Source: Saccharofermentanales bacterium (GTDB lineage Bacteria > Bacillota > Clostridia > Saccharofermentanales > DTU023). From it: DNA of 64,000 nt. The notes under the pieces are model-generated. The model did not search any database. It was not told the DNA's origin and saw only the letters and a program-made list of their open reading frames with translations. Below are positions 11,748 to 28,872 of the stretch, piece after piece (within the stretch, counting starts at the first letter, position 1; each line of letters starts with the position of its first letter). The position numbers and the translations under genes are program-made. The stretch spans positions 10,876-74,875 of the forward strand of contig JBMNTA010000004.1 in assembly GCA_050945495.1 (NCBI GenBank), in the 5' to 3' direction.

Positions 11748-11757
11748 GCGGGATCAC

Positions 11758-12222
11758 CTACCAAACTTCCGCGTACGCGGTGTTGAGATACAAGGTCTCC
11801 AGCGCCGTCTTGTGCGCCTGTTCCATGTTTCTCAAATTGGTGAAGAGTTCTTTCAGACGGGGATCCGACGCCTCGGCGGCGAGCTTTTCGTACGTCTGCA
11901 TCGCCGCTTCTTCGCGTTTCACGGCCAAGGCCATGGCGTCGCTGAACGGCATGTCGGCCCACAGATTCGGCGTCTCGGAGATCACCTCTTCGGCAATGCG
12001 GTAATCGTGCGTCTGAGCCTTAATCGTGACGCTTAACGGGTCATCGCTTTCCAGCAGGCGCGTCAAAAAGTCTCGGTGATTTAATTCATCTTTCGCCAAA
12101 TTTTGAAATGTCTCTTTCAGGGCGTCGTTGTTGACTTTTTGGGCGGCGATGCGATAGAAATCGTAGGCGTCTTGCTCGGCTTGAATGCCGCGCTGAAGGG
12201 CGTGTTTCATAGCTTCGGTCAT
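11758..12222 (-). CDS. ferritin-like / rubrerythrin-family protein without a rubredoxin domain
   Basis: Two EXXH-type helices (KDELNHRDFL, NMEQAHKTAL). AAAGGGA RBS before ATG 12222. Stop lies 10 nt upstream of the fdhA start, so probably co-transcribed. Confidence 0.75.
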   Translation of the reverse strand: MTEAMKHALQRGIQAEQDAYDFYRIAAQKVNNDALKETFQNLAKDELNHRDFLTRLLESDDPLSVTIKAQTHDYRIAEEVISETPNLWADMPFSDAMALAVKREEAAMQTYEKLAAEASDPRLKELFTNLRNMEQAHKTALETLYLNTAYAEVW

Positions 12223-12325
12223 GATGGTGTCCCTTTCTTCCATCGCGTGCGAAAACGATGGCACACCTTGATTTTACCATAGGATCACCCGATGACCGGA
12301 GGTTATTTATGCAAAGATGTTTTGA

Positions 12326-13774: not shown

Positions 13775-13789
13775 CGTCGACCTCCGCCT

Positions 13790-15145
13790 TTATTTGACCA
13801 GGATGTCGCTGACATCGCGGAAGTTCGGCGTCGTCGTGACGACGATGATCTCGTCGTTCGGACGAATGATGTCGGATCCGGAGGGGAAGATGATGTCGTC
13901 GTCACGCAAGATGCAGAGGATCAAAAGCCCCGGCTTCGTCTCCATGTCCATCAACGGAATGTCGCAGACGGGACTGTCGTCGGCCACGTGGAATTGCAGC
14001 ACTTCCGCAAGTCCCCCCGCCACCCGATAGAACGCCTCGATGTTGGACCCCTTGATGTTGTCGGTGGAGCGAACGAAGCGGACGATTTCGTCGGCGATCA
14101 GTCGGCGCGGCGTGATGATGGCCTGCAGGCCGACGTTGTCGAGAACGTTCAATAAATTCGTGCGATTGACCTTCGTGATCGTCTTCGGCACCCCGACGCG
14201 CGACGCGTAGATCGAAATCAGCAAGTTCTCCTCATCGATGCCCGTCAGGGCGATGACGGCATCGCTGTTGTAGATGCGCTCTTCACGCAAAATCGCCTGA
14301 TCGGTGCCGTCGGCGCAGATGATGTCGGCCTTCGGGAATTCGCCCGCCAGTCGATCGGCGACCGCCTCGTCGTATTCGATGACCTTGAGGCGCATGTTCA
14401 ATTTTTGGAGCATCGGCAGCACGTACCGCGTGATGCGTCCGCCGCCGATGATGATGACGTTCTCGGGGCGCTTGGAACGATCGGGATCGACACGCATGAA
14501 GCGGTGAATCTCGGTCGGAAGCCCCGTGATGTAAAGCTTGTCATCGGCCCGAAGCACGAAATCGCCGGACGGAATCACGATGTCGCCGTCGCGCTCGACG
14601 GCCGCAATCAAGACGTCGCCGTGTTGACGTCCCAGATCCCGGAGGCTCTGTCCGATGTACATGGAATCTTCGGCGAGATCGGTCTCGACGATGAAGACGC
14701 GGGCGTGACCGAACGATTCGACGCCCATCGCCGCGGGGAAGCGCATCATGCGATCGATGGCGCGCGCCGCCTCGTAGTCGGGGTTGATCATCAAATCGAT
14801 GCCCAGGGATTCGCGCAAGAACGCCATTTGATGAAAGTACTCAGGGCTGCGGACGCGCGCGACGACGTACCGCGCACCGATTTTCTTGGCGGTGATGGCC
14901 GCGATGATGTTGGTCTCATCGTCGGGCGTCACGGCGATGAACATATCGCAGGTGTCGACGTCGGCTTCGCGCTGAACGTCCAACAGGGAACCGTTGCCCT
15001 GCACACCCGCGATGTCCGCCATGTGAATCATCTGATCGATGCGTTTTTCGCTTTGATCGATGATGATCACGCGGTGATCTTCCAAACTCAAATCGTGGCA
15101 AATCACTTCGCCGACTTTGCCTGCGCCGCAGACAACAATGTCCAT
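13790..15145 (-). CDS. trkA: Trk system NAD-binding (RCK) subunit TrkA
   Basis: Two Rossmann starts (VVCGAGKVG, IIIGGGRITRY) giving a duplicated RCK architecture. GAGGGAG RBS. Confidence 0.9.
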   Translation of the reverse strand: MDIVVCGAGKVGEVICHDLSLEDHRVIIIDQSEKRIDQMIHMADIAGVQGNGSLLDVQREADVDTCDMFIAVTPDDETNIIAAITAKKIGARYVVARVRSPEYFHQMAFLRESLGIDLMINPDYEAARAIDRMMRFPAAMGVESFGHARVFIVETDLAEDSMYIGQSLRDLGRQHGDVLIAAVERDGDIVIPSGDFVLRADDKLYITGLPTEIHRFMRVDPDRSKRPENVIIIGGGRITRYVLPMLQKLNMRLKVIEYDEAVADRLAGEFPKADIICADGTDQAILREERIYNSDAVIALTGIDEENLLISIYASRVGVPKTITKVNRTNLLNVLDNVGLQAIITPRRLIADEIVRFVRSTDNIKGSNIEAFYRVAGGLAEVLQFHVADDSPVCDIPLMDMETKPGLLILCILRDDDIIFPSGSDIIRPNDEIIVVTTTPNFRDVSDILVK

Positions 15146-15148
15146 CGT

Positions 15149-15559
15149 TTACTCCCTCGTATATCGACCGAACGGCTCGCGTTCAAACGCGAGGAAGCGT
15201 TCGCCCTGAAATGTCAACGTCCCGCGATCGCCTTCGACGAGATGCCCGGCCACCCGCGCGTCGATCTCCATCTCCAGTCGATCACCGCTGTCGAACTCAA
15301 ACGTCGCGTAATAGCGCGTGTACGCATTCGCCGCGCTGCCGTAACGCACATCGCCGCGCGCCGAATGACCGACCTCGGTGCGTTTCTCGACGACCGTGGC
15401 ATCGACCGTCAGACGCGGCGATTTTTGATCCTTACGATAGCGCTTGGCGCGCACAACAAAAGAATACAGAATGATGACCAACACCACCAAAAAGAAGATG
15501 ATGAAAAGCGTCATAAACGTATTCATCTGTCCGAATAAACCTACGTTTGCGATGTCCAC
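15149..15559 (-). CDS. small single-pass membrane protein (DUF2500-like by recollection)
   Basis: N-terminal TM FMTLFIIFFLVVLVIILYSFVV followed by a soluble beta-rich domain. GTG start with AGGAGC RBS. Confidence 0.6.
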   Translation of the reverse strand: MDIANVGLFGQMNTFMTLFIIFFLVVLVIILYSFVVRAKRYRKDQKSPRLTVDATVVEKRTEVGHSARGDVRYGSAANAYTRYYATFEFDSGDRLEMEIDARVAGHLVEGDRGTLTFQGERFLAFEREPFGRYTRE

Positions 15560-15571
15560 AGCTTGATGCTC

Positions 15572-16000
15572 CTATACGTCGATGTCCAACATGCGCATCG
15601 CTTTGATGACTTCGCGACACACGGTGGTTTGGGGGCGCAAGCGTTGCGTCTCTTCCGTTCCGTCGCCGTATTTCAGGTAAAATTCCATCGACTTCACCTG
15701 TTCCCGATATCGTCCCGACGCCATCCCCAAGAGGAACCCCCAATCGCCGGCGATCCATTTGCCGAGGATCGCCTTTTCCAGCGTATCGTCGTGACCTTTG
15801 ACATCGACCATGAGCAATTTGGCGTCTTGCAAACCGTGTTCTCGAAGCTTCAAAAGCGTTCGCCGCTCGGACACCGCGCGCCCGATCAAGCCGATGATAT
15901 AGACGATGGGCAAGAGAATCAACATCCATTTGAGCAACGTGCCGAACGCCGTGCCTTTGCACGCCGTCGTCGGAAGCCATGCCCCTAGCTCATGGATCAT
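15572..16000 (-). CDS. hypothetical membrane-anchored protein, first gene of the trk operon
   Basis: GAGGAG RBS 6 nt before ATG 16000. One TM (WMLILLPIVYIIGLIG). No family recognised. Confidence 0.6.
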   Translation of the reverse strand: MIHELGAWLPTTACKGTAFGTLLKWMLILLPIVYIIGLIGRAVSERRTLLKLREHGLQDAKLLMVDVKGHDDTLEKAILGKWIAGDWGFLLGMASGRYREQVKSMEFYLKYGDGTEETQRLRPQTTVCREVIKAMRMLDIDV

Positions 16001-16159: not shown

Positions 16160-17395
16160 CTAATCGGCGTAGTGGGTCTCTCGAATGTTCTTTAAAAGAA
16201 TCTTGCCTTCGCGAATCACGTACGGGCGGTTCGGGCAGAGCGCCATCGCCTCGCGGATGTTCTTCGCCTCGATGAGCACCAGGTTGGCGGTGCAGCCCTC
16301 TTCCAGGCCGTAGCCTTCGAGGTTCATGATTTTGTTCGCATCCGTCGTGATCATGTCGAACACTTTTTCCAGTTCCGGCGGCAGGCTCATCTGCGCGGCA
16401 TGGACGGTCACGTTCGCCACCTGCAGCATGTCGGCGCTGCCCAAGGGATAGAACGTGTCGTTCACGCAGTCTTGACCGAAGCTGACGTTGACGCCGGCCT
16501 CGAGCAATTCTTTCACGCGCGTGATGCCGCGGCGAATCGGCTGACGGTCGAGACGCCCTTGGAGCATCAGGTTCGTCACGGGATTCGTGATGATGTGCAT
16601 CTTCGCCTTGGCGACTTTCTCAATCACGTACGCGGCGTAGTGGTCGTCGTAGGCGGCCAGCGCACAGGTGTGTCCGGCGGTGACGCGACCTTCCCAGCCG
16701 CGCTTGATCGTCTCGTCGGCGACCATCTCGAGGGTGCGGTAGAACGGATCGTCCGTCTCGTCGACGTGCATGTCAACGTCGGCGTCGTATTTTTCCGCGA
16801 GATCGAAGCAGTAGCGGACGTGGGCGAGGCTGTCGTCGGGCGAGTTTTCGTTCGCCGGCATGCCGCCGACGATGTCGCAGCCCATCTTCATCGCTTCGTC
16901 CATGAGCTTGTCGCAGCCGGGATCTTTGAGAATGCCCTCTTGCGGGAAGGCGACGAGTTGCAACGTCATTTTGTCTTTGTAACGGTCGCGCAACGCCAGG
17001 ACGCCCTCCAGCGGCTTCAATCCGCCGATGGTGTCGATGTCGATGTGCGTACGCATGGCCAACGTGCCGTTGGCGAGGGCCTTGTCGACGACGTCGCCCG
17101 CGCGTTCGAGCACGTCCTCATTCGTGTACTGACGTTTGCGATCCCAGATGATCTCGATCGCCTCGGTGAGCGTTCCGGATTCGTTCTTCCGAACGCTGTC
17201 GAGGATGTTGACTTTGTCCAAGTGAATGTGCGGGTCGATGAGCGCGGGCACGAGGAGGTTCTCCTCGGCGTCGATCGTCGTCTCGGCCTGGACGTCCAAC
17301 GCCTGCCCGATCTCCTTGATCTTTTTGCCTTCGCAATACACGTCCCAAAGTCCGTCGCGATCTCGAAGGATGCAGTTCTTGATAAGTAATGACAT
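16160..17395 (-). CDS. amidohydrolase-superfamily enzyme, cytosine deaminase (CodA)/AtzC-like
   Basis: LVPALIDPHIHLDK metal-binding start, later HVDE and a TIM-barrel amidohydrolase layout. AAAGGAG RBS. Confidence 0.85.
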   Translation of the reverse strand: MSLLIKNCILRDRDGLWDVYCEGKKIKEIGQALDVQAETTIDAEENLLVPALIDPHIHLDKVNILDSVRKNESGTLTEAIEIIWDRKRQYTNEDVLERAGDVVDKALANGTLAMRTHIDIDTIGGLKPLEGVLALRDRYKDKMTLQLVAFPQEGILKDPGCDKLMDEAMKMGCDIVGGMPANENSPDDSLAHVRYCFDLAEKYDADVDMHVDETDDPFYRTLEMVADETIKRGWEGRVTAGHTCALAAYDDHYAAYVIEKVAKAKMHIITNPVTNLMLQGRLDRQPIRRGITRVKELLEAGVNVSFGQDCVNDTFYPLGSADMLQVANVTVHAAQMSLPPELEKVFDMITTDANKIMNLEGYGLEEGCTANLVLIEAKNIREAMALCPNRPYVIREGKILLKNIRETHYAD

Positions 17396-17437
17396 GGTGG
17401 CTCCTTTCCTGAGTCTAACGCTTGGTATCTTTTAAGG

Positions 17438-17998
17438 TTATTGGTTCCGTAATTCTTCGGCCGCCTTTTCGATCGCATTGACGATCGGGATGTAGCCCGT
17501 GCAGCGGCAGATGTTGCCCGCCACCGCCTGGCGGATCTCTTCGCGCGTCGCCTCCGGGTTTTTCTTCAGCAACGCGTACGCGCTCATCACAAATCCCGGG
17601 GTGCAAAATCCGCATTGGACGGCGTCGCCGTCCACGAAACACCGCTGAATGACGCTGCCGATCGCGTCTTCGCTCATGCCTTCGATCGTCAAAATCTCGG
17701 CATCCTGCATCTGACCGGCCAGCACGAGGCAGCTCGTCACGGCATTGCCGTTCAAGACCACGGTGCACGCACCGCACTCTCCGACGCCGCACCCTTCTTT
17801 CGTGCCGGTGAGCCCCAGCTCATCGCGGATCACATCGAGCATCCGCATCCCCGGCGGCACCGTGACGGTGTACGGTTCTCCGTTTAACGTAAACGACACC
17901 TCGATGGTCTCGCGATCGGGCGATGACGCCATCGCTTGCTTAACCTCGGTCGCGGTGATATTTTTGGTTTGCGTTTGAGGTTTGTCTTTAGTGGTCAT
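17438..17998 (-). CDS. (2Fe-2S)-binding small subunit of a xanthine dehydrogenase-family molybdenum hydroxylase
   Basis: GCGVGECGACTV and CGFCTPG cluster motifs plus NICRCTGY. AAGGAGAG RBS. Overlaps the FAD subunit stop. Confidence 0.9.
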   Translation of the reverse strand: MTTKDKPQTQTKNITATEVKQAMASSPDRETIEVSFTLNGEPYTVTVPPGMRMLDVIRDELGLTGTKEGCGVGECGACTVVLNGNAVTSCLVLAGQMQDAEILTIEGMSEDAIGSVIQRCFVDGDAVQCGFCTPGFVMSAYALLKKNPEATREEIRQAVAGNICRCTGYIPIVNAIEKAAEELRNQ

Positions 17999-18866
17999 CG
18001 GTCTCTCCTTTGATCAGTTTTCTAAGAATACGTTCCGCCAAATTGCGGCATACCGGTTGCTTGTAAGCGGTCGACTTACGGATGCCCGCGATTTCGGGAA
18101 TCTTATCCGAAAGGGCGCGTGCGACCGCTTGGATGTCCCGATCGGTCGGTCGTTTGCCGACCAGCATCGCGGAGATGTCGGGGAACGTCATCGGGCGCGG
18201 GAACGTCGCTCCCATGGTCATGTCAAAGAACGTCACCACCCCGTCATCGTCCATTTCCAACAACGTCGCAATCGTCATGCGGGAAATCGACAGGGCTTTT
18301 CGACGCCCAATCTTGGTGAAATCATATTGAACGTTCGGGCCGAGCTTTTGGATGCGCACGCTGACGATCAGGTCGCGATCGCTTAAGTTCGTCTTGTAGG
18401 GTCGCTCGAAGATATCGACGAGCGGCTCCACCCGCATGACGCCGTCGCGGAGAATGACCACTTCGGCACGGAGCAGGGCCAACGCCGCCAGCGTGTCGGC
18501 CGCGGGCGATGCATTGGCGATGTTGCCGCCGATCGTCGCATGCTGGCGGATCTGCAACGATCCGACCGATCGGGACGCTTCCGCGAGGATCGGCATGTAA
18601 CGCTTGACGAGCGGCGAGGCCGCGATGTCTTCATGCGTGGCACAGGCCCGAATGATCACTTCGTCGCCCTGTTCCTCGATCGTACGCAACGCCGGGATGC
18701 CGAAGACGTCGATGAACGTGTGATCTCGATAGGCATCGGTCTCGCGGGCCTTGACCAGCACATCGCTGCCGCCGGCCAAAATCATGACGGGGCCGTCCAC
18801 GGAAGCCACGGCCTGCTCGAAGTCCTCGAGCGTCGTGACGCGAATGTAATCGTGCATTTTAATCAT
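17988..18866 (-). CDS. FAD-binding medium subunit (CoxM/XdhB-like) of the molybdenum hydroxylase
   Basis: ILAGGSDVLV and ATIGGNIANASPAADT FAD motifs. ATGA-type start overlap with the large subunit stop (start 18866 rather than 18899). Confidence 0.9.
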   Translation of the reverse strand: MIKMHDYIRVTTLEDFEQAVASVDGPVMILAGGSDVLVKARETDAYRDHTFIDVFGIPALRTIEEQGDEVIIRACATHEDIAASPLVKRYMPILAEASRSVGSLQIRQHATIGGNIANASPAADTLAALALLRAEVVILRDGVMRVEPLVDIFERPYKTNLSDRDLIVSVRIQKLGPNVQYDFTKIGRRKALSISRMTIATLLEMDDDGVVTFFDMTMGATFPRPMTFPDISAMLVGKRPTDRDIQAVARALSDKIPEIAGIRKSTAYKQPVCRNLAERILRKLIKGETDDH

Positions 18867-21180
18867 CGTATCCACCCCACAGTTCGTGCGCCTTGGCAAA
18901 GACGCGGTCGAGATCGAACGGCAATTGACGAATGGCCCCCGGGTGACCCAGCGCCATGTTGACGGCGCTCGTCAGCGCACCCGCACCGGGCTCGGTCGCC
19001 GGTTCGCCGATGGAGCGTCCGCCGAACGCACTGCGCGGATCGGGGTGTTCGTCCAAGATCGGCAGGTTCGTATCGGGCACATCGAGCACGGTCGGCAGCA
19101 AATAATTTTCGAAGTTCAAATTCTTTAAGGCCCCCGTCTCGTCGTTGTGGCCCAAATCTTCGATCAGCGCCATGCCCTGCGCCATCGCGAGGCCGCCGTA
19201 CACTTGGCCCTTGACCATCGTCGGATTGATCGCCCGTCCGGGATCGTGGACGCCGACCATTTGAATGACCTCCACGGAACCGACGTCGAGGTCGACTTCG
19301 ACCTCGGCCGCATGGCAGGAGTACGTGTACGTATAGAAAGGTTCGCCGTATCCCTTCTCCTCATCCCAGTCCGTGATGGGCACGGTGTACGTGCCGGTCG
19401 CCATCGGCGTCAGATTGATCCGATACGCGATGCCGACGACCTCTTCAAAGGACAGATCGTGGCCGTCAAACGTGACGCGATTGTTTTCAAACACGACGTC
19501 GCCGATATCTTCGCCGTAGTCATGTTTGATCGCTTCGATCAGGATGTCGTGGATGCGTTCACAGGCATCGTGGATGGCGCCGCCGCCGAGCAGCGTGCCG
19601 CGCGAGGCGATGCACGCGCCCGTGACGGGCGCACGCGACGTGTCGGTCGCGCCCATGGTGACGCGATCCATGCTGACGCCCATGCCCTCCGCGGCCATCT
19701 GTTGCTGACAGGTGCGAAGCCCCTGCCCGATTTCAACCAGGCCCAAGTTGACGTGGACACTGGCGTCCTGCATCACTTCGATCAGGACACGGGCCACGTC
19801 GAAGCCGTTGCCGTCGGCACCGACACTGGCGCCGCGCATGCTGACGGCCAGGCCGACCCCGCGCCGTTTTCGGCGTTTCGGATCTTGATTTTCTTTTTTG
19901 TATTGTTCGTATTTGCGTTCGTAGTCGAGCGCTTCGACGGCCTTTTCCATCACGGACATGATGCTGACTTCGTGGAAGTCCAACACATGACCGGTCGGGC
20001 TGGTGTCGCCGTTTTTCAAGAGATTCTTGCGACGCAGTTCGAGGGGCGAGATGCCGAGTCGCTCAGCCAATTCGTCCATGGCGTTCTCCAAGGCGAAAAT
20101 CGCCTGAGGCGTCCCGAACCCGCGCATCGATCCCGTATGGTTGTTGTTCGTCAGAACGGCCAGCGCCGTGTAGTCGACGTTGTCGAGCCGATACGGCCCC
20201 GGGCCGAGCGTCGCGGTTTTGTACGCGACGGGCGGCGACATGTTGGTGTAGGCGCCGGCATCCGACACGGAGAACACGCGCATGGCTTTCAACGTGCCGT
20301 CCTTCATCGCACCGAGCTCAATCTCAAATTCGATGGGATGGCGCTTGTAACTTTCGCGAATGGATTCTTCGCGCGTGAGCGTGTACTGCGTGGGCCGCCC
20401 CGTCTTCAGGGCGATCAGGCCCGCGCGCACCGACATCGCTTCGGCCGTTTCGATTTTGCCGCCGAACGAGCCGCCGACCGTGCTCGGTCGGAAAATAATC
20501 TGCGACATCGGGATGTTCAATACGCGGTGAATCGAGATGCGCGCGTTGTACGGCGCCTGCATCGATCCCAAAATGGTCAGCTCCGGGCGCATGCGGCTCG
20601 GGATGGCCGTCACCGATTCGGGTTCGATGTACGCATGTTCCACAAAATCGGTTTTATAGCGCGTCTTGAGCACCACGTCGGACTCCGCCAACCCCTGCGC
20701 CGCATCGCCTTTGCGCGTATGCACTTCGCCGCAGATGTTGCGCGGATTCTTTTCATTGATGCGGAGATCGCTCTCCATGGCGGCGAGCGGCGAGCCGAGG
20801 ACCGGCAACGGCTCGTACTTGACTTTGACCCGTTCGGCCGCTTCGTTGGCTTGCTCTTGCGTGTCGGCGGCCACGATGGCGACCACGTCCCCCAAATAGC
20901 GGACGCGATCGTCGGCGATGGGATACTGGTCCACGAACAATTCGCCGATCATCAGCTCTCCGGGAATATCCTTCGACGTGACAACGCATGCCACCCCGGG
21001 CATCCGTTCTGCTTCCGTCGTGTCTATGGAAAGGATCTTGGCATGGGCGTATTCACTGTAGACGCCCTTGCAGTAGAGGAGGTCGGGGAGTCGAACATCG
21101 GCACCGAACTCCGCACGACCGGTCACTTTGGCCTGCGCATCAATCCTTTCAAAGGTCTTACCTATGGTGTGATTTGCCAT
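18859..21180 (-). CDS. molybdopterin-binding large subunit, xanthine dehydrogenase / aldehyde oxidoreductase family
   Basis: GGSFGGK motif, GFGTPQ, C-terminal RSIGEPATEPGAG with the catalytic Glu context. Confidence 0.9.
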   Translation of the reverse strand: MANHTIGKTFERIDAQAKVTGRAEFGADVRLPDLLYCKGVYSEYAHAKILSIDTTEAERMPGVACVVTSKDIPGELMIGELFVDQYPIADDRVRYLGDVVAIVAADTQEQANEAAERVKVKYEPLPVLGSPLAAMESDLRINEKNPRNICGEVHTRKGDAAQGLAESDVVLKTRYKTDFVEHAYIEPESVTAIPSRMRPELTILGSMQAPYNARISIHRVLNIPMSQIIFRPSTVGGSFGGKIETAEAMSVRAGLIALKTGRPTQYTLTREESIRESYKRHPIEFEIELGAMKDGTLKAMRVFSVSDAGAYTNMSPPVAYKTATLGPGPYRLDNVDYTALAVLTNNNHTGSMRGFGTPQAIFALENAMDELAERLGISPLELRRKNLLKNGDTSPTGHVLDFHEVSIMSVMEKAVEALDYERKYEQYKKENQDPKRRKRRGVGLAVSMRGASVGADGNGFDVARVLIEVMQDASVHVNLGLVEIGQGLRTCQQQMAAEGMGVSMDRVTMGATDTSRAPVTGACIASRGTLLGGGAIHDACERIHDILIEAIKHDYGEDIGDVVFENNRVTFDGHDLSFEEVVGIAYRINLTPMATGTYTVPITDWDEEKGYGEPFYTYTYSCHAAEVEVDLDVGSVEVIQMVGVHDPGRAINPTMVKGQVYGGLAMAQGMALIEDLGHNDETGALKNLNFENYLLPTVLDVPDTNLPILDEHPDPRSAFGGRSIGEPATEPGAGALTSAVNMALGHPGAIRQLPFDLDRVFAKAHELWGGYDD

Positions 21181-21224
21181 CTTATACCCCCTGAATAGGC
21201 TTTTATTACCTTGCGCGTGGTTTC

Positions 21225-21253
21225 ATTGTAACCGATTACATTGCAGCTGTCCA
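21225..21253 (-). promoter_or_regulatory. putative sigma-A promoter (TGGACA-17-TACAAT) of the hydroxylase genes, overlapped by operator TGTAATCGGTTACA (21227-21240)
   Basis: Read on the minus strand. The 14-bp TGTAA-N4-TTACA dyad overlaps the -10. A second copy of the dyad lies at 23764-23777. Confidence 0.5.
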
Positions 21254-21287
21254 TGGCCTTTTATACCAAAACGGATGCGTTTTATTG

Positions 21288-21320
21288 CACAAAAGACGCG
21301 CCCACTTCCGTGCGCGCGTC
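21288..21320 (-). terminator. possible intrinsic terminator/attenuator after the DPD-like gene
   Basis: Minus strand GACGCGC-12 nt loop-GCGCGTC followed by TTTTGTG. Confidence 0.45.
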
Positions 21321-21360
21321 ACCGCTTCGAACCCGGTCCCCGCCGCACGACGGGTTCCGA

Positions 21361-22479
21361 TTATCCGTCGAGCCGAAGTTTCAAGATCTCGCGCGGGCAG
21401 CGCGCGACACACAATCCGCACCCGTCACAGCGTTCGGGATCGACGACAATGCCCCGATCGTCGCTCCACGACACGGCGTCGGACAGGCAATGGCGGATGC
21501 ACCGCCGACAATCGTCGCGATCACATGACGCCGTCAACACGACCGTCTGCGGCAAGGCCACAATGTCTTCGAAGGCCCGCAACGACGCCAAGGCCTTGCC
21601 CCGGATGGCCCGGAAGCTGTCCAGATCGTGCGCTTCGAGCCATCGGTTAAGGTCATCGAGGATCCGCGTGATGACGCCGTAGCCTTCCAACTGAATGACG
21701 GACGCGAGCTGAACGGCCTTGGCCCCGAGCATGAGGTGCTCCAACACCGTCGTGTAATCGACGACCCCGCCGGAGCTTGCGACCTCCATGTTTGTATATT
21801 GATGCAACGCCGCCGTTGTGGCCAAAGCGATGGGGCGTATGTGGTGTCCCGTATAACCGCCGTACGTCGGCATGTGGCACGTCTGTGTCTCCAAATCCAC
21901 GCCTTCCAAGCCTTTGAGCGCATCGATGGCGCTGACGCCGCGAATGCCCGCACGCTCCAATTCACTCAGGAAATACGGCGAGGACGCCGCTTCATAGGAC
22001 AGTTTCACGGTCACCGGCACGTCGACGGCCCGCACCGCGGCCTGCACAAACGCATAGATGTCGGGCGAGTAATTCACGAGCAACGGGTTCCGCGCCCCGA
22101 TCGGGGCCGACAAACTGATTTCGATGCCGTCGGCGCCCATTTGCTCGACTTTGCGCGCCATATACGCGATTTCGGACGGCGTGGCACCCCAAATGCTGCC
22201 GATCACCTTCGCATCGCCCCGATCGATCTGCGGGAATTCCTCTTCCCATTCTTCCAAGTGCATTTTGGAATAGAGCATGATGTTGAAGAGCTCGTCCTCG
22301 GAGGCATACAGTCGGGGACTCAAGCGTGTCGCCGCCTCCAGCGAGATGGTCTCCGTAATGACGGCGGCCGCGCCCGCATCGATGCAACGCTGGATGCCGT
22401 CGGCGGATCCCGCCCACGGACCCGACGCCACAATGATGGGGTTTTTTAATTTCAATCCGATAAATTCAGTGGTCGACAT
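21361..22479 (-). CDS. dihydroorotate/dihydropyrimidine dehydrogenase-like flavoprotein (PreA/PyrD fold) with a C-terminal Cys-rich Fe-S domain
   Basis: LKNPIIVASGPW start typical of class 1 DHODH/DPD B. C-terminal CDRDDCRRCIRHC and CDGCGLCVARCP ferredoxin-type motifs. GAGGAAG RBS before ATG 22479. Confidence 0.85.
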   Translation of the reverse strand: MSTTEFIGLKLKNPIIVASGPWAGSADGIQRCIDAGAAAVITETISLEAATRLSPRLYASEDELFNIMLYSKMHLEEWEEEFPQIDRGDAKVIGSIWGATPSEIAYMARKVEQMGADGIEISLSAPIGARNPLLVNYSPDIYAFVQAAVRAVDVPVTVKLSYEAASSPYFLSELERAGIRGVSAIDALKGLEGVDLETQTCHMPTYGGYTGHHIRPIALATTAALHQYTNMEVASSGGVVDYTTVLEHLMLGAKAVQLASVIQLEGYGVITRILDDLNRWLEAHDLDSFRAIRGKALASLRAFEDIVALPQTVVLTASCDRDDCRRCIRHCLSDAVSWSDDRGIVVDPERCDGCGLCVARCPREILKLRLDG

Positions 22480-22505
22480 GGGGCTTCCTCGTTTCTTATG
22501 AGCCA

Positions 22506-23531
22506 TCAATCAAACAGTTCAAAAATATCGCTCTTGTTGCCGCACGATGCGCGGATTTTCAATTTGGGTTGCAGGATCAGCTCGTGCGTGATCGCGTCGT
22601 CGGATTCGCCTTTGTCGAGCCGATCGAACAAGAGGCGTGCGGCCGTCATGCCCAGCTTGGACGCCGGCATCTCGATGCTCGTGATCGCGGGCGTGACGAC
22701 CTTGCAGATGACCGAATCGTTGAAACACGCCAGTGCCATCTCGTCGGGAATCACGAGGCCCGCATCGCGTGCCGCCTTCAGCGCACCGATGGCCTGCAAG
22801 TCGTTTTCCGTCACAAAGGCCTCCGGCAGTTCATTCTTTTGAATCATCTTTTGCACGGCAAAGTAACCGCCCCGCGCATTCCCCGCTTCCGAGAAATAGA
22901 TCGTGCGCATGGGCACCTTGAGCTCCCGCGATGCCCGCTCGATGCCGGGCTCGACCAACAGCGACAGATGCGATGTGCGTTCATCCGACAGGATCCCGAG
23001 CACGTGGTGGCCGAGACGCCCGAGGTGACGCGCCATCCGATAGGCGGCTTCTTCAAAATCAAGGTAGACCAGCATATCGCACCCGCAGTCGCGGTTTTTG
23101 CCGATGTGCACTCGGGGGATCTCCATCGCGTCCAACTCGGGAATGTGCGACACATCCAATTTGGAATCCACGTGGATGATCCCGTCGACGTGGCGCATCT
23201 TCATGGTTTTCATGAATTCCAATTCCGCTTCGGGATCGCCGCCCGTCTGGCTCAAAATGACCACAAAGCCTTTGTTGTCGGCGACGGTTTCCACGCCGGA
23301 AATGATGTTGCGGTGTAAATCGGAATCGATGTCGGGGACCAGCAGCGCAATCGTCTTGGTGGTTCCGAGGTTTAAGCCGCGGGCGAGCCAGTTGGGCGTG
23401 TAGTCGTGAGCCTCCGTGATGGCAAGCACGCGCTCGCGCGTCTCCGGCAAGACACGCTCCGGATGATTGAAAACGCGTGAAACCGTTGCCACGGAAACGC
23501 CCGCGAGTTCAGCGATCTTTCGAATATTCAC
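22506..23531 (-). CDS. LacI-family transcriptional regulator
   Basis: N-terminal IRKIAELAGVSVATVSRVFN HTH followed by a periplasmic-binding-protein-like effector domain. Confidence 0.9.
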   Translation of the reverse strand: MNIRKIAELAGVSVATVSRVFNHPERVLPETRERVLAITEAHDYTPNWLARGLNLGTTKTIALLVPDIDSDLHRNIISGVETVADNKGFVVILSQTGGDPEAELEFMKTMKMRHVDGIIHVDSKLDVSHIPELDAMEIPRVHIGKNRDCGCDMLVYLDFEEAAYRMARHLGRLGHHVLGILSDERTSHLSLLVEPGIERASRELKVPMRTIYFSEAGNARGGYFAVQKMIQKNELPEAFVTENDLQAIGALKAARDAGLVIPDEMALACFNDSVICKVVTPAITSIEMPASKLGMTAARLLFDRLDKGESDDAITHELILQPKLKIRASCGNKSDIFELFD

Positions 23532-23717
23532 GCACGTCCTCCTTTGGCACCCTCCACCTGATCGAACTAATTATACATGACGGCGAACGCGCCACGCACA
23601 AAATTTTACCCGGATTTCACAAATCGACTCATAAGGCCGATGTGTCAAGCGTCCCGCACAAAGCGAAAAACACGGAAGGTCGGCCCGTTCGGCGTTTAAA
23701 TATTCGAAATCATTGCA

Positions 23718-23777
23718 TTGACAAGCCCCGCGTGCTTGTTATAAAGTGTCATTGTCCAACTGTTGTAAATAGTTACA
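23718..23777 (+). promoter_or_regulatory. permease promoter (TTGACA 23718-23723, 16-nt spacer, TGtTATAAA 23737-23745) and downstream operator TGTAAATAGTTACA (23764-23777)
   Basis: Hexamers and extended -10 read directly. The dyad shares TGTAA-N4-TTACA with the site at 21227-21240. Confidence 0.55.
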
Positions 23778-23826
23778 TCTTTTACACGGATGTACCCCAG
23801 AGACATGGGATTGAGGAGGAGTTTTC

Positions 23827-25098
23827 ATGACAAAGGACAAGAAGCAAGCGGAAGTCGTTGATATCGACTTTTCGTTGGAACCCGTGCCGCAGAAGGCTCG
23901 GAAAAACTTTTGGTCGATGTTTGTCATCATGCTCGGCTTTACCTTCTTTTCGGCAAGCATGAGCGTCGGTGCCACCATGGCCAACGGACTGAACTTGAGC
24001 AATTTCATTTGGGCGGTTCTGATCGGCGGCGTCATTCTCGGCGCCTACACCGGAGCCTTGGGCTACATCGGATGCGATACCGGCCTCAGCCTCGACTTGC
24101 TCGCTCACCGCTCGTTCGGAACGCTCGGATCGTATCTGCCGTCCGCACTGATTTCATTCACACAGATCGGCTGGTTCGGCGTCGGCTTGGCGATGTTCGC
24201 CTTCCCGGTCGCAGACCTGCTGCACATCCCCGTTTGGGTGCTGGTCGTGATTGCCGGCGTTCTGATGACGTCATCGGCCTACTTCGGCATCACGGGCTTG
24301 GAGATCGTCAGTTACGTCTCCGTGCCGCTCATCGCCATCCTGGGCATCTATTCGATGGTGACCGCCACCAACCAAGGCGGCGGACTCGTGGCCATTTTCG
24401 CCAAATCGCAAGGCCAGCTGTCCTTGTTCGCGGCCGTCGGCCTCGTCATCGGATCCTTTGTGTCCGGCGGCACGGCAACGCCCAACTTTGCCCGGTTTGC
24501 CAAGAACAATAAATCGGCCGTCGTCACCACGGTCATCGCCTTCTTCCTCGGCAACACGCTGATGTTCATGTTCGGCGCCGTCGGCGGTGCCTTCACCGGC
24601 CAGGAAGACATCTTCTACGTCATGATCGCGCAAGGCCTCGCCATTCCGGCCATCCTGGTCTTGGGCGCCAACATCTGGACCACCAACGACAATGCCCTTT
24701 ACACATCGGGGCTCGGCTTGTCGAACATCACCAAGGTTCGCAAAAAGCCCATGGTCATCATTGCCGGCATCATCGGCACGGCCGCAGCCGTGTGGCTTTA
24801 CAACAACTTCATCGGCTGGCTGAATTTCTTGAACGCGACGTTGCCGCCCGTCGGCGCCATCATCGTGCTCGACTACTTCCTGCGCCGTGAAAAATACAGA
24901 GATGCCAATGAACCGTTGGCGAAAGTCAACATCGCCGCCATCTTGGCCGTGGTCGCCGGCGCACTGGTCGGCAACTACGTCAAGTGGGGCATCAGCGCGA
25001 TCAACGCCATGGTCGTCGCGTGCCTCGTCTACTACATCGGTTCGAAGTTCTTTTCCAAGTTCTTGGTGATCCCGAATAAACCGAAAGCGAAAGCATAA
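23827..25098 (+). CDS. NCS1-family purine-cytosine (CodB-like) permease
   Basis: 12-TM protein with a CodB-like N-terminus (VPQKARKNFWSMFVIMLGFTFF). GAGGAGG RBS. Confidence 0.9.
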   Translation: MTKDKKQAEVVDIDFSLEPVPQKARKNFWSMFVIMLGFTFFSASMSVGATMANGLNLSNFIWAVLIGGVILGAYTGALGYIGCDTGLSLDLLAHRSFGTLGSYLPSALISFTQIGWFGVGLAMFAFPVADLLHIPVWVLVVIAGVLMTSSAYFGITGLEIVSYVSVPLIAILGIYSMVTATNQGGGLVAIFAKSQGQLSLFAAVGLVIGSFVSGGTATPNFARFAKNNKSAVVTTVIAFFLGNTLMFMFGAVGGAFTGQEDIFYVMIAQGLAIPAILVLGANIWTTNDNALYTSGLGLSNITKVRKKPMVIIAGIIGTAAAVWLYNNFIGWLNFLNATLPPVGAIIVLDYFLRREKYRDANEPLAKVNIAAILAVVAGALVGNYVKWGISAINAMVVACLVYYIGSKFFSKFLVIPNKPKAKA

Positions 25099-25111
25099 CT
25101 TCAATCAACAT

Positions 25112-25192
25112 GGCGGTCGGGCGCGGCCCGACCGCCCACCTTGCGTCATTCGTACATCCCCCGTCGTCATCGGCCGACGGGGGATTCTCTTT
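25112..25192 (+). terminator. two tandem GC-rich hairpins after the permease gene
   Basis: GGCGGTCGGGC-gcg-GCCCGACCGCC (25112-25136) and CCCCCGTCG-8 nt-CGACGGGGG followed by ATTCTCTTT (25158-25192). Confidence 0.5.
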
Positions 25193-25339
25193 GCCCGACA
25201 ACGGCATCGGCCGACGGCTCCGCGATCTTCGGGCGTTTTGGTACAATGTTAGCCGTAGCACGCGCCGCCCGATCGGGCGGCGGCAAAGATGAGGAGGAAC
25301 GCGCGGGCGCCATGAGGGTGCGCCCTTCGCTCGACCACA

Positions 25340-26383
25340 ATGAAAGAACGATTGGAAGCCATTCGCGCGGAAGCGCTGCAAGCGTTTGCCGAAGCCCCGT
25401 CTTCGGAAGCGCTCGACCATTTGCGCCAGGATTTTTTGGGCAAAAAAGGCCGCTTGACCGACGTCTTGAAAGGCCTCGGCCAATTGCCGCCGGAAGACCG
25501 CAAAACGTACGGCAAAATGGCCAACGACATCAAGCGGGAACTGAACGAGGCGCTGGAAGCGCAAAAGGATCGACTGCTTGAACAGGCGTCGTATTTTGCC
25601 GATCCCGTCGACGGCACCGTCCCCGGATTCGCCGTGGGCCGCGGCGGGCTCCATCCCATCACGCAGATGTGTTACGACTTGAACGACGCGTTTTATTCCC
25701 TGAACTTTGAGCTCTACAGCGAGGATGAAGTGACGAGCGAATTGTACGCGTTTGACCATTTGAACTTTCCGCCGGATCACCCGGCCCGCGATACGATGGA
25801 CACGTATTGGATCGACGGCACCGAGGACCTGCGCGGCGTCGAGCGCCTGTGCCTGCGCCCGCACCTGACGGGCGGCAGCGTCCGCTATCTGCAAAAGCAC
25901 GGCGCCCCGGCACGTGTGATTTACCCCGGCAAGGTCTTTCGCAACGAAGCGACGGACGCCCGCCACGAGCGCGCGTTCTACCAATACGAAGCATTGATCG
26001 TCGATCGCGACTTCTCGTTCGCCTCCGGCCTCCTGCTGGTGCGCACCATCTTGGAGCGCGTGTTCGGCCGCGACGTGCCCGTCCGCATGCGTGCGGGCTT
26101 CTTCCCGTTCGTCGAACCCGGCTTTGAAATCGATATGGAGTGCCAAGTCTGTCACCACGAAGATCCCGACTGCCACGTCTGCCACGGCACGGGATGGATC
26201 GAGGTCATGCCGGGCGGCGCCCCGCACCCCAACGTGCTCCGCGCCGCGGGACTCGATCCCGACATCTGGAGCGGCTTTTACATCAACATCGGACTCGATC
26301 GCCTCGTCATGATGCGCTACGGCGTCGACGACGTCCGACTGTTCCACAGCGCCGACCTGCGCTTCCTCGAACAGTTTAAGTAA
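25340..26383 (+). CDS. pheS: phenylalanine--tRNA ligase alpha subunit
   Basis: N-terminal coiled coil LRQDFLGKKGRLT. Class II motifs FRNEATDARHERAFYQYE and GLDRLVMMRYG. Confidence 0.95.
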   Translation: MKERLEAIRAEALQAFAEAPSSEALDHLRQDFLGKKGRLTDVLKGLGQLPPEDRKTYGKMANDIKRELNEALEAQKDRLLEQASYFADPVDGTVPGFAVGRGGLHPITQMCYDLNDAFYSLNFELYSEDEVTSELYAFDHLNFPPDHPARDTMDTYWIDGTEDLRGVERLCLRPHLTGGSVRYLQKHGAPARVIYPGKVFRNEATDARHERAFYQYEALIVDRDFSFASGLLLVRTILERVFGRDVPVRMRAGFFPFVEPGFEIDMECQVCHHEDPDCHVCHGTGWIEVMPGGAPHPNVLRAAGLDPDIWSGFYINIGLDRLVMMRYGVDDVRLFHSADLRFLEQFK

Positions 26384-26439
26384 GCTTTTTACCGCGTTCG
26401 CACCGCGAACCGTTTCATCGATATCAAGAGGAGTCAATC

Positions 26440-28872
26440 ATGAAAGTCTCACTGCAATGGATCCGCGATTACGTCGATTTGCCCGCCGATCTCACGGCCG
26501 AGCAACTCGCCTCGGACCTCACCCTCCGCACGGTCGAAGTCGAAGCGATCGAGAACCCGGCCGACCGGGTCGAGGGCATCATCGTCGGCCAAATCGACAC
26601 CGTCTCCGAACACCCGAAAGCCGACCGCCTGCGCGTTTGCACGGTCGACATCGGACGCGACCGCCACTACCAGATCGTCTGCGGCGGCAGCAACCTGTAC
26701 GACGGCGAACTCGTCGCCGTCGCCCCGCCGGGATCATGGGTGCGCTGGCACGGCGAAGGCGAGCCCGTCGAATTGACCTCAACGAAGCTGCGCGGCGTGC
26801 TGAGCGAGGGCATGATCTGCGGGTCGGATGAGATCTGCCTGGAGGCGCTGTTGCCGAAACACTCGGAGGCCGAAATCGTCGACTTGACCGCGTTGTTTCC
26901 CGATGCCGCCCCCGGCGCCCCGATCGCCGACGTACTGGGTCTCGACGACCTCATCATTGAAATCGACAACAAATCGATGACGAATCGCCCCGACTTGTGG
27001 GGCCATTACGGCATCGCGCGGGAACTCGCGGCGATCTACGGCACGGCGCTGAAACCGTTGCCCGCGTTCACGTGCCCCGAACACGTCGACGACTACGCGG
27101 TGCGGATCGAGGCCCCGGAGCGCTGCCTGCGTTACGACGCCGTCATCTTCGAACCCGTGCAATTGAAGCCCGCCCCGTTCTGGATGCAACGCCGCATCTG
27201 GTCGGTCGGCATGCGCCCGATCAATGCCTTGGTCGACATCACCAACTACGTGATGCTCGCCACCGGTCAACCGACGCACGGATTCGACCGCGCGCACGTC
27301 GAACGCGGCATTTCGGTGCGCGAGGCACGCGCGGGCGAACAGCTCACGCTGTTGGACGGCCACGTCCTGGACCTCGACCCCTCCGACCTGTTGATTTGCG
27401 ACATCGCCGGCAAACCGATCGGACTTGCCGGCGTCATGGGCGGAGCCGCCGATTCGATTCTCCCCGAGACGGAAGGCCTCGTTTTGGAAATTGCCAACTT
27501 TACGCCGAAAAGCATCCGCCGCACGGCGGGACGCCACATGATTCGCACCGAAGCGTCGGCGCGGTTCGAAAAATCGCTCGACACCCAACGCTGTGATGAC
27601 GCGCTGGGCCTCGCGCAAGCCTTGTTTGCCGAGATCGTCCCGGAAGCGAAAATCGTTGCGACCGGTCGGTCGCACATCCGCACGACGGCGCCGATCGAGA
27701 TCCCGGTCTCGCTCCGTTTCCTGAACGTTCGCTCCGGCCACACCCTCACGTGGGACGACGTGAAGGAGGTCTTGATCCCCCTGGGGTTTGACGTGACGTT
27801 CGACGGCGACGACACCCTCACCGTCGGCGTGCCGAGCTGGCGCGCGACGGGCGATGTCGACATCCGCGACGATATTCTCGAAGAAGTCTGCCGCATGATC
27901 GGGTACGACGCCTTCGACTTCGTTCCGCCGACCGTGCAACTCGCGTCGGCCGTCCGCCAACGCGACGTCGAGGCGGAGCGCGCTTTGCGCGAATATTTGG
28001 CGTTCCGCGCGGGGCTACAGGAAGTCTTCGGATATCCGTGGGCGGCCGATCTTTTCCGCCATCTCGTGGGCGAAGACGACGCGCAATGCATCCGCCTGGC
28101 CACGCCGCCGGCGCCCGACCGCGCCTGTTTGCGCGCCTCGATTTTGTCGGGGCTTCTGGAAGCCGTGGCGGAAAATTCACGGTATTACGAGGCGTTCGGT
28201 CTCTTTGAATTGGCCCAAGTCCATCGCGCGGGCGAAACGCACCCGAGCACGCCGGAAGAGACGCTGCCGATTCAGCGCCGTCATCTGGGCATGGCCGTCG
28301 CCGGCCCCTCGGCCGACGATCTGTTCCGAAAGATGAAGGGCATCTTGGCGGCGGCGCCCCGCTTTGCGGGCGTCCGACCGCTGACGTTCGATGTTGTCGG
28401 CGAGCGCCCCGTGTGGGCCGATCGCAACGCCTGGCTCGCAATCCTCGGCGAGGACGACACGGTCATCGGGCACATGGGCATCGCTTCGCCCAAGACCATC
28501 GCCGAGAGCGGCACGCGCAACGTATGCGTTGCCATGGCCGAGCTCGACGTCGAATGCCTCACGCCCTTGGCGAGCCGCGACAATCGCTTCGAGCATGTGC
28601 CGCAATTCCCCTTGGTCGAGCAAGACTTGTCGATCGTGGTCGACGAGGACAAAACGTGGGGCGAAATCGAGGCGGCCATCGAGGGGTACGTGCGTCGCTC
28701 CGAATTCGTCGAGGCGTACCGCGGCGATCAGGTGCCGGCGGGCAAAAAATCGATCATGTTCCGATTCTGGCTCGGCTCCGACGAGGGCACCCTGTCCGCC
28801 GAGGCCATCGAGCGCGAGCGCATGCGCTTGATCAAGAAGCTGCATTATACGCAGGGCGCGGAGATGCGCTAG
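26440..28872 (+). CDS. pheT: phenylalanine--tRNA ligase beta subunit
   Basis: MKVSLQWIRDYVD start, tRNA-binding domain (HPKADRLRVCTVDIG), B3/4, B5 and FDX-ACB-like C-terminus. About 810 aa. Confidence 0.95.
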   Translation: MKVSLQWIRDYVDLPADLTAEQLASDLTLRTVEVEAIENPADRVEGIIVGQIDTVSEHPKADRLRVCTVDIGRDRHYQIVCGGSNLYDGELVAVAPPGSWVRWHGEGEPVELTSTKLRGVLSEGMICGSDEICLEALLPKHSEAEIVDLTALFPDAAPGAPIADVLGLDDLIIEIDNKSMTNRPDLWGHYGIARELAAIYGTALKPLPAFTCPEHVDDYAVRIEAPERCLRYDAVIFEPVQLKPAPFWMQRRIWSVGMRPINALVDITNYVMLATGQPTHGFDRAHVERGISVREARAGEQLTLLDGHVLDLDPSDLLICDIAGKPIGLAGVMGGAADSILPETEGLVLEIANFTPKSIRRTAGRHMIRTEASARFEKSLDTQRCDDALGLAQALFAEIVPEAKIVATGRSHIRTTAPIEIPVSLRFLNVRSGHTLTWDDVKEVLIPLGFDVTFDGDDTLTVGVPSWRATGDVDIRDDILEEVCRMIGYDAFDFVPPTVQLASAVRQRDVEAERALREYLAFRAGLQEVFGYPWAADLFRHLVGEDDAQCIRLATPPAPDRACLRASILSGLLEAVAENSRYYEAFGLFELAQVHRAGETHPSTPEETLPIQRRHLGMAVAGPSADDLFRKMKGILAAAPRFAGVRPLTFDVVGERPVWADRNAWLAILGEDDTVIGHMGIASPKTIAESGTRNVCVAMAELDVECLTPLASRDNRFEHVPQFPLVEQDLSIVVDEDKTWGEIEAAIEGYVRRSEFVEAYRGDQVPAGKKSIMFRFWLGSDEGTLSAEAIERERMRLIKKLHYTQGAEMR

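Follow-up and report, generated by a model that had tools for sequence, protein, structure and literature searches.

A stretch of 64,000 nucleotides of Saccharofermentanales bacterium DNA (GenBank assembly GCA_050945495.1, contig JBMNTA010000004.1, positions 10,876 to 74,875; hereafter the window) carries a seven-gene module that we confirm to be real, regulated, co-conserved and uncharacterized. Its genes encode a LacI-family repressor, a stand-alone PreA-like Fe-S flavoprotein termed PreAl, a three-subunit hydroxylase of the xanthine dehydrogenase (XDH) family, a CodA-family amidohydrolase of a type termed AH-A, and a divergently oriented CodB permease. The original prediction, made from sequence alone, had described a LacI-controlled set of enzymes that hydroxylate, reduce and hydrolyze an N-heterocycle whose identity was left open. 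Profile matches to Pfam and NCBIfam families agree with the gene content it listed, and the control by LacI is backed by conserved predicted operators on two promoters. The substrate can now be narrowed. It is most likely cytosine/uracil rather than an unidentified heterocycle, because the LacI-PreAl pair adjoins CodB and a CodA-family deaminase (often a genuine CodA) and because preT-preA genes stand behind the same operator elsewhere. The equivalog-level match of CodB and the CodA residues kept in AH-A point to the same bases. The reading that we favor, at about even confidence, is a LacI-repressed cytosine regulon that takes up the base, deaminates it to uracil and ammonia, salvages the uracil via Upp, and processes the ring with redox enzymes, namely PreAl and, in loci organized like that of the window (type I), the molybdenum (Mo) hydroxylase.

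A LacI-PreAl pair attached to probable cytosine uptake and deamination

Gene neighborhoods were compared at 80 loci from species-representative genomes, together with loci from assemblies. The constant unit is LacI followed by PreAl, and it is nearly always accompanied by CodB and a CodA-family deaminase. A LacI-like match lies directly upstream of PreAl in the same orientation in 82 of 86 tabulated loci, and at the remaining four the contig ends just upstream of PreAl. The lacI gene is predicted to be co-transcribed with that for PreAl. Clustering of all neighboring open reading frames (ORFs) of these loci revealed no further widely shared partner, and no downstream enzymes for ring fragments are co-conserved there. 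Thus, what is conserved is the LacI-PreAl pair joined to genes for cytosine import and deamination, to which redox enzymes are added variably.

Four arrangements recur. Type I loci, like the window, combine CodB, the AH-A lineage and a window-type XDH. Type II loci (Anaerotruncus, Lawsonibacter, Tissierella, Angelakisella and Alkalispirochaeta) carry CodB and a genuine CodA with no XDH, and this CodA shares 55-60% identity with E. coli CodA and is identical at all pocket residues checked. In type III loci (Anaerovoracaceae, Sinanaerobacter), CodB and a third CodA-family lineage occur with two tandem LacI-PreAl pairs, which show two operator flavors in Anaerovoracaceae, and then genuine preT-preA. 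Type IV loci (Clostridium aminobutyricum and relatives) have LacI-PreAl followed by preT-preA, an amidase of the M20 hydantoinase/carbamoylase family and an NCS2 permease. The genuine PreA proteins of types III and IV are 57-60% identical to E. coli PreA. XDH is thus an accessory present in a subset of loci; elsewhere, the partner is another XDH lineage, preT-preA or no redox enzyme at all. Because other LacI-PreAl modules adjoin XDH-family enzymes from two or more additional lineages (27-31% identity), the functional link between Mo hydroxylase and module appears to be a recurrent one.

Of the 22 other species genomes of the genus, 9 contain a PreA-like orthologue (at least 57% identity). Synteny of the cluster extends to eight or more other species, where all seven genes lie beside pheST as far as contigs allow. 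Identities among the orthologues are 86-87% for the amidohydrolase, 70-79% for the Mo subunit, 75-82% for CodB, 59-65% for the PreA-like protein and 52-65% for LacI. The full gene set, in rearranged order, also occurs in Christensenellaceae and other Clostridia. The expectation that the genes would be co-conserved is therefore borne out. However, the linear trio of hydroxylase, reductase and hydrolase that had been proposed as the unit gives way, across the 80 loci, to the LacI-PreAl pair. The module is nevertheless rare and patchy, because no member of the PreA-like family was found at E ≤ 1e-70 in 398 other sampled Clostridia genomes; with four candidates scored in each genome, this result speaks for rarity within the sample but not for absence. 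The CodB proteins of these Clostridia and of the spirochaete Alkalispirochaeta share 74% identity, which is consistent with lateral spread. Index entries for the A. colihominis PreA-like gene cover more than 1000 blocks of the sequence collection, and plasmid homologues (matches in Rhizobium and Haloarcula) have no informative context. In one relative (locus L021, approximately 9651-10744), the PreA-like gene falls into three frames within an otherwise intact cluster, which represents either a pseudogene or an assembly error.

Regulation of the cluster can be read from a 14-bp palindrome, TGTAA-N4-TTACA. Exactly two copies occur in the window, both on promoters of the cluster, and when up to one mismatch is allowed there are four matches, compared with 0.28 expected by chance. 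At the same stringency, the motif recurs in 38 of 40 intergenic regions between divergent CodB and LacI genes and within 450 bp upstream of all 22 window-type Mo genes (22/22). Its density at these two kinds of site is 3.46 per kb, versus 0.06 per kb across the remainder of the loci. The LacI protein has an N-terminal LacI helix-turn-helix domain and a periplasmic-binding-protein-like effector domain. It scores below all NCBIfam equivalogs, of which RbsR, CcpA, PurR and CytR are the nearest. Because the predicted operators are conserved at the promoters, they support control of two or three transcription units by a single repressor. Furthermore, the same motif precedes genuine preT-preA in type III and IV loci, which ties the regulon to pyrimidine enzymes.

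Signatures of the permease and the enzymes

Family assignments rest on Pfam and NCBIfam profile matches, with bit scores compared to NCBIfam cut-offs. CodB alone passes a curated equivalog cut-off; the other enzymes of the cluster fall below every NCBIfam equivalog threshold. It scores 496 bits against the cytosine permease equivalog NF008241 (cut-off 326) and shares 51% identity with its E. coli counterpart over 402 residues. By both curated score and full-length similarity it belongs to the CodB family, and cytosine transport is predicted accordingly.

For AH-A, the closest NCBIfam family is the cytosine deaminase PRK07572 (409.7 bits, under the cut-off of 438), and PRK09230 scores 348.9 bits (cut-off 483). 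The best PDB match is E. coli CodA (1e-83; 37% identity), well ahead of AtzC (1e-50). When aligned with E. coli CodA, AH-A retains the metal ligands His61, His63, His214 and Asp313 as well as the catalytic residues Glu217 and His246. It also keeps Gln156, which recognizes the 2-oxo/N1 edge of cytosine, in an FPQEG motif; with Gln156 and Glu217, all residues for 2-oxo/N3 recognition are in place. Seven changes fall on the side of the pocket that faces C5 and C6 (G84A, F186N, H312Q, D314C, F316N or K, P318T and W319F), so that AH-A differs from E. coli CodA both in this pocket and in curated score. Comparison with AtzC and a pADP-1 amidohydrolase offers a weak hint only, namely that residue 316 is basic or polar. 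A quick tree resolves three well-supported groups, which are AH-A, CodA of the E. coli type and the lineage of type III loci; because these groups were defined by identity, the tree is descriptive.

AH-A is the sole CodA-like gene of the host genome, and its close homologues (67-70%) are also found outside such clusters, with one beside an NCS2 permease and one beside an IclR regulator in Proteiniborus. In Anaerotruncus massiliensis, AH-A occurs with a LacI-PreAl pair and without its cognate XDH. These three cases weaken the idea, drawn from near-perfect co-occurrence, that AH-A is specific for the product of the XDH. Most economically, AH-A can be read as another, second line of deaminases for nucleobases (cytosine), not as the ring-opening amidohydrolase originally proposed. 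It is likely to act on an exocyclic amino group because the CodA residues are kept, because a genuine CodA takes its place in clusters lacking XDH, and because a solitary copy sits beside an NCS2 permease. The A. massiliensis locus (L085, approximately 8893-15164) is a second LacI-PreAl locus (46% identity) lacking XDH. Its pair is followed by genes for a 331-residue protein without family matches, a carbon-nitrogen hydrolase resembling formamidase/aliphatic amidase, and an AH-A-type amidohydrolase.

PreAl scores 157 bits against NCBIfam PreA (cut-off 335) and is 27-29% identical to E. coli PreA. Its best match, both in the PDB and by fold, is to domains IV-V of pig dihydropyrimidine dehydrogenase (DPD), which are the flavin mononucleotide (FMN) domain and the second ferredoxin domain. 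Like the FMN subunit of DPD, it has a TIM barrel for FMN followed by a 2x[4Fe-4S] domain, with eight Cys residues in the C-terminal domain. The structure model has a confidence (pLDDT) of 75.5, with active-site loops of low confidence. In the alignment, PreAl has E43, S122, A125, D186 and A187 where genuine PreA and PydAc have K, N, C, N and T; in pig DPD numbering, the changes are K574E, N668S, C671A, N736D and T737A. The Ala, Ser and Asp at the sites of C671, N668 and N736 are invariant in an alignment of 14 sequences and, together with the Ala at the T737 site, are near-constant across the family members compared, the window protein among them. All controls (E. coli PreA, the genuine PreA proteins of type III and IV loci, and a PydAc-type protein from a PydB-PydAc-PydC cluster) keep the equivalents of Lys574, Asn668, Cys671, Asn736 and Thr737. 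Tyr206, which is specific to the family, may be another source of the proton, and a ring that bears an amino group would match the two acidic substitutions.

The cluster has no PreT, and PreAl, at 372 residues, lacks the N-terminal ferredoxin domain, so that neither a PreT partner nor an Fdx1 domain accompanies it. Because it also has no flavin adenine dinucleotide (FAD)/NAD(P)H partner domain, PreAl would need an external electron partner, for which the ferredoxin-dependent clostridial PydAc is a precedent (PMC7332683). One relative carries a minus-strand operon of PreA-like (421 residues), PreT-like and SsnA-like genes (locus L022 on contig C12 of genome G022, approximately 6870-10640). Its PreA-like protein keeps the Cys and has the Ser and Asp substitutions (the S122/D186 signature), and the operon resembles a split YgfK with its hydrolase.

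The XDH-family enzyme has all three cofactor modules, with Mo-pterin, FAD and 2x[2Fe-2S]. The best equivalogs for the Mo subunit, XdhA and PucD, score approximately 490 bits against cut-offs near 780, and all XDH equivalogs score at or below approximately 490 against cut-offs of 780-916. The FAD subunit is closest to XdhB (168 bits, cut-off 310), and the [2Fe-2S] subunit is below all NCBIfam equivalog cut-offs. The Mo subunit keeps the equivalents of Gln767, Arg912, Phe914 and the catalytic Glu1261. At the purine-binding sites, Glu802 is replaced by Ile (the next residue being a Glu), Arg880 by Lys and Phe1009 by Val, and this Ile/Lys/Val signature is conserved among orthologues. Because these residues are replaced, the window enzyme is not a canonical xanthine dehydrogenase; the host's own selenium (Se)-dependent XDH keeps the Glu802 and Arg880 equivalents. 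The top PDB matches are 4-hydroxybenzoyl-CoA reductase, a dehydroxylating enzyme, followed by bovine xanthine oxidase, with nicotinate dehydrogenase at mid-rank. The Mo subunit is therefore best described as a predicted XDH-family hydroxylase of an uncharacterized subfamily. A relative encodes a protein of dihydroorotate dehydrogenase (DHOD) fold in which the catalytic loop is missing, with XDH-family Mo and 2Fe-2S genes at its flanks (locus L120 on contig C26 of genome G005), which makes a third pairing of XDH and DHOD-like genes in the genus.

The locus and its host

All seven ORFs of the cluster are intact in the window (Table 1). The PreAl protein is 372 residues long in database records, which would place its start near 22479 and probably makes it shorter than the longest ORF. 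The [2Fe-2S] subunit probably begins at Met23, near 17932, likewise inside the longest ORF; its orthologues align only from approximately residue 31 onward.

Table 1. Genes and predicted promoter elements of the cluster (window positions)
Feature	Position	Strand	Remarks
CodA-family amidohydrolase (type AH-A)	16160-17395	-	Pfam Amidohydro_3/1; last gene of the XDH operon
[2Fe-2S] small subunit, XDH-family enzyme	17438-17998	-	Fer2_2 + Fer2
FAD-binding medium subunit, XDH-family enzyme	17988-18899	-	FAD_binding_5 + CO_deh_flav_C
Molybdopterin large subunit, XDH-family hydroxylase	18859-21180	-	Ald_Xan_dh_C + MoCoBD_1/2
Promoter-like site of XDH-AH operon with predicted operator (21227-21240)	21225-21253	-	TGTAA-N4-TTACA overlaps the -10 hexamer
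Stand-alone PreA-like FMN/2x[4Fe-4S] protein (PreAl)	21361-22509	-	DHO_dh + Fer4 (C-terminal 4Fe-4S dicluster)
LacI-family repressor	22506-23531	-	LacI helix-turn-helix + Peripla_BP_3
codB promoter-like site TTGACA-18-TAAAGT (23718-23747) with predicted operator (23764-23777)	23718-23777	+	Operator just downstream
CodB cytosine permease (NCS1), divergent from lacI	23827-25098	+	NF008241 equivalog

The cluster is flanked by trkAH (12326-15145) and pheST (25340-28872). The gap between codB and pheS is approximately 240 bp in the window (25099-25339), versus approximately 2 kb of extra sequence in three relatives (L014-L016). Downstream of the amidohydrolase, two small minus-strand ORFs (136 and 142 residues; window 15149-16000) have hydrophobic N-terminal segments; they gave no family matches, are not conserved in relatives and were left out of the cluster. 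Farther away, positions 9051-11747 of the minus strand encode a formate-dehydrogenase-like molybdopterin enzyme with 2Fe-2S, NADH-G 4Fe-4S and Molybdop_Fe4S4 domains, interrupted by an in-frame TGA. Because this TGA sits in the context C-A-R-T-U-H, a classic selenocysteine site of FdhA, the region is probably a single selenoprotein of approximately 898 residues, not two ORFs.

The host is represented by a 1.5-Mb metagenome-assembled genome that is 93.6% complete, and its relatives carry the NCBI labels Mageeibacillus sp., Clostridiales bacterium DTU023 and Saccharofermentanales. DNA of the window was detected in metagenomes from anaerobic digesters, sludge, bioreactors and landfill (11 studies), and the single run labeled RNA-Seq that carries it behaves as DNA contigs. 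Because no pyrB, pyrD, pyrE or pyrF was detected in this genome, whereas an upp divided between two contig ends was, the host is probably a pyrimidine auxotroph that depends on salvage. In most other members of the genus, the PreA-like query matched Fe-S domains only and no DHOD-like protein.

Two unlinked regions of the genome are relevant to ring metabolism. Contig C9 (locus L115, 8691-11336) carries a dihydropyrimidinase-family (PydB-like) gene, scoring 494 bits to TIGR02033, followed directly by an amidase of the M20 hydantoinase/carbamoylase family (PydC-like). This pair was considered as the missing downstream steps of the conserved system and rejected because it did not turn up in the other genus genomes searched. 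Contig C12 (locus L114, 4817-18632) holds a complete reductive uric-acid cluster that includes a pyridoxal phosphate enzyme, YgeW, YgeY, YgfK, SsnA, HyuA, a Se-dependent XDH and an NTP-transferase/ModE-domain protein, with all named families above NCBIfam cut-offs. Thus, the early statement that dihydropyrimidinase and beta-ureidopropionase are missing holds within the cluster but not genome-wide, given the pair on C9 and HyuA on C12. The window cluster is not a variant of the urate cluster, of which it holds none of the genes and which is already complete on C12.

Known pathways, the proposed scheme and its alternatives

In E. coli, codBA is a salvage system. The window shares with it a CodB that is 51% identical and above the equivalog cut-off and a CodA-family deaminase with all catalytic residues, and many sister clusters have a true CodA. 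In contrast, the window deaminase is a separate lineage (37% identity) with seven second-shell changes, and the LacI-family repressor, PreA-like Fe-S flavoenzyme and XDH have no counterpart in E. coli codBA. The oxidative pyrimidine pathway, for which PMC9585004 cites Hayaishi and Kornberg (1952), consists of uracil/thymine dehydrogenase, barbiturase and ureidomalonase. Common to both is a Mo-Fe-S-flavin hydroxylase that would act on a pyrimidine taken in after cytosine deamination; however, that pathway is aerobic, and no barbiturase-family match was obtained here in a search whose controls also went unmatched. Anaerobic nicotinate fermentation uses nicotinate dehydrogenase, 6-hydroxynicotinate reductase and enamidase. 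It has the same logic of hydroxylation, reduction and hydrolysis, but the transporter and hydrolase of the window are of the cytosine type and no downstream nicotinate genes are conserved beside the module.

The front end of the reductive uric-acid pathway (XdhD(-YgfM), YgfK/UacX and SsnA; PMC12507026) likewise combines an XDH homologue, a PydA-like FMN/Fe-S reductase and a hydrolase of the amidohydrolase superfamily in anaerobes. However, all of the window components belong to different subfamilies, CodB takes the place of UacT, and no HyuA, YgeW, YgeY or YgeX is linked. The window cluster is a distinct system with a similar three-enzyme logic. With the Pyd pathway (PreT/PreA, PydAc; PMC7332683), the shared features are the FMN TIM barrel with C-terminal 2x[4Fe-4S], DPD as the best sequence and fold match and, as in PydAc, the lack of an FAD/NAD(P)H domain. 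PreAl differs in lacking the N-terminal Fdx1 of PydAc, in the replacement of the catalytic Cys and four pocket residues, and in its 27-29% identity to E. coli PreA, and neither PydB nor PydC is present in the window cluster or in any type I locus. Gene content and neighborhoods rule out assignment to nicotinate fermentation or the canonical Pyd pathway, in agreement with the original prediction, and no characterized pathway matches the whole cluster. Literature searches that combined cytosine deaminase, DPD, XDH, LacI and anaerobic pyrimidine degradation found no description of the module.

The scheme that we infer for the favored cytosine regulon, with its substrate, its electron partner, and the order and direction of its two redox steps, is as follows. 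CodB would import cytosine or a very close 4-amino-2-oxopyrimidine, and AH-A would deaminate the imported base to uracil and ammonia. The uracil would then either be salvaged via Upp or have its ring processed by the two redox enzymes under the same repressor. PreAl may act on the 5,6 bond of the pyrimidine, with electrons probably drawn from ferredoxin or from the Fe-S/FAD chain of the XDH itself. The accessory three-subunit Mo hydroxylase would hydroxylate the same ring or, running in reverse, dehydroxylate it. Perhaps the Mo hydroxylase is redox-coupled to PreAl, such that the oxidation of one ring pays for the reduction of another. In the host, the unlinked PydB/PydC-like genes on C9 could open the ring of a dihydropyrimidine product.

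Several observations weigh against this scheme. PreAl lacks the general acid of DPD (Cys671 is replaced by Ala), and because this Cys and four other pocket residues are changed, uracil reduction by the DPD mechanism is not expected of it. Where PreAl shares a regulon with genuine PreTA, the two presumably do not catalyze redundant reactions. The Mo subunit falls in no characterized subfamily, and nothing ties it specifically to pyrimidines. The altered C5/C6 pocket of AH-A leaves room for a modified cytosine as a conceivable substrate. Furthermore, none of the other 22 genomes of the genus yielded the PydB/PydC-like pair, which within the genus is unique to the host. Finally, no enzyme that would open a barbiturate-type product was found, although the search with Amido_AtzD_TrzD (PF09663) left its controls unmatched as well.

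Some of these points would be accommodated by the logic of the original prediction, a strictly sequential, urate-like pathway for another heterocycle in which the XDH homologue removes or adds a ring hydroxyl, PreAl then dearomatizes the ring and hydrolysis of the reduced product by the CodA-family enzyme draws this unfavorable reduction onward. We regard such a pathway as unlikely, though less so than the alternatives below. An XDH homologue, a PydA-like reductase and an amidohydrolase are the exact front-end triad of the reductive urate pathway, in which reduction was detected only when coupled to SsnA hydrolysis (PMC12507026). The remodeled PreAl pocket and the altered C5/C6 side of AH-A would fit a non-uracil or non-planar substrate, the best PDB match of the Mo subunit is a dehydroxylating enzyme, and the PreA-like/PreT-like/SsnA-like operon of a relative (L022) encodes a PreA-like protein with the S122/D186 signature. 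However, many LacI-PreAl clusters have no XDH and a genuine CodA with an unchanged cytosine pocket as their hydrolase, AH-A is also found alone, CodB is a cytosine-permease equivalog, and no downstream ring-fragment enzymes are co-conserved. A purine front end, in which the CodA-like enzyme deaminates isoguanine or another aminopurine and the XDH forms urate for the cluster on C12, seems very improbable. In its favor, the annotation of E. coli CodA covers isoguanine as well as cytosine deamination, the residues on the C5/C6 side of AH-A are smaller (W319F, F316N and F186N), and the host has the complete YgeW-YgeY-YgfK-SsnA-HyuA-SeXDH cluster. Yet the Mo subunit lacks the Glu802/Arg880/Phe1009 set, of which the host Se-dependent XDH keeps the first two, the transporter is CodB and not an NCS2 purine permease, and the pyrimidine enzyme PreTA stands behind the same operator elsewhere.

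The gaps in de novo synthesis (pyrB, pyrD, pyrE and pyrF not found in the 93.6%-complete genome, with upp present) bring to mind a salvage funnel in a pyrimidine auxotroph, through which the deaminase (from cytosine), PreAl as a dehydrogenase (from dihydrouracil) and the XDH (from an over- or under-hydroxylated pyrimidine) would all deliver uracil to Upp. E. coli codBA itself serves salvage, and fungal DHOD-like enzymes oxidize dihydrouracil and rescue uracil auxotrophy (PMC9585004). We nevertheless judge the funnel improbable, given that the single transporter is of the cytosine type, that the cluster also occurs in genomes of 3-4 Mb, and that PreAl lacks the base residue that dihydrouracil oxidation also needs, an oxidation that would not obviously be favorable through low-potential Fe-S clusters. 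The cluster is present in about 9 of 22 species of the genus, though most members have no DHOD-like match to the PreA-like query and may share the auxotrophy. The adjacency and shared orientation of LacI and PreAl at nearly every tabulated locus, the duplication of the pair as a unit in Anaerovoracaceae with two operator flavors, and the variety of neighbors (CodBA, XDHs and PreTA) would also suit a mainly regulatory PreAl. It would make or destroy the true ligand of LacI, much as LacZ makes allolactose, while flux runs through CodA, XDH or PreTA. This idea is quite improbable in our estimation, because regulators are commonly co-transcribed with the first catabolic enzyme and an Fe-S flavoenzyme would be a costly signal maker.

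A more speculative reading is that PreAl represents a new class of Fe-S flavoenzyme that reduces an aminopyrimidine ring, namely cytosine. The Asn-to-Asp and Lys-to-Glu changes would flip the hydrogen-bonding pattern, just as an Asn-to-Asp change turns uracil-DNA glycosylase into a cytosine glycosylase. The CodA-family enzyme would then deaminate dihydrocytosine to pull the reaction, and the Mo hydroxylase would oxidize a second ring to supply electrons, which together would amount to a hitherto undescribed cytosine dismutation or fermentation under anaerobic conditions. We consider this reading improbable.

The handling of pyrimidine rings by strict anaerobes is far less known than the purine side, for which the reductive urate pathway was solved only in 2025. 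The module described here joins cytosine uptake and deamination to two redox enzymes of no characterized subfamily, under a repressor with a clear predicted operator. It occurs in Clostridia of digesters and landfill, and its form without XDH is found in human-gut Anaerotruncus and Lawsonibacter. If the module proves to perform ordinary cytosine salvage and uracil reduction, the gain would be better annotation only. It also bears on the long-open question of how PreA-type enzymes function without PydB and PydC, and possibly on the microbial metabolism of cytosine/uracil analogues. The module offers a testable entry to a possible new pyrimidine route.

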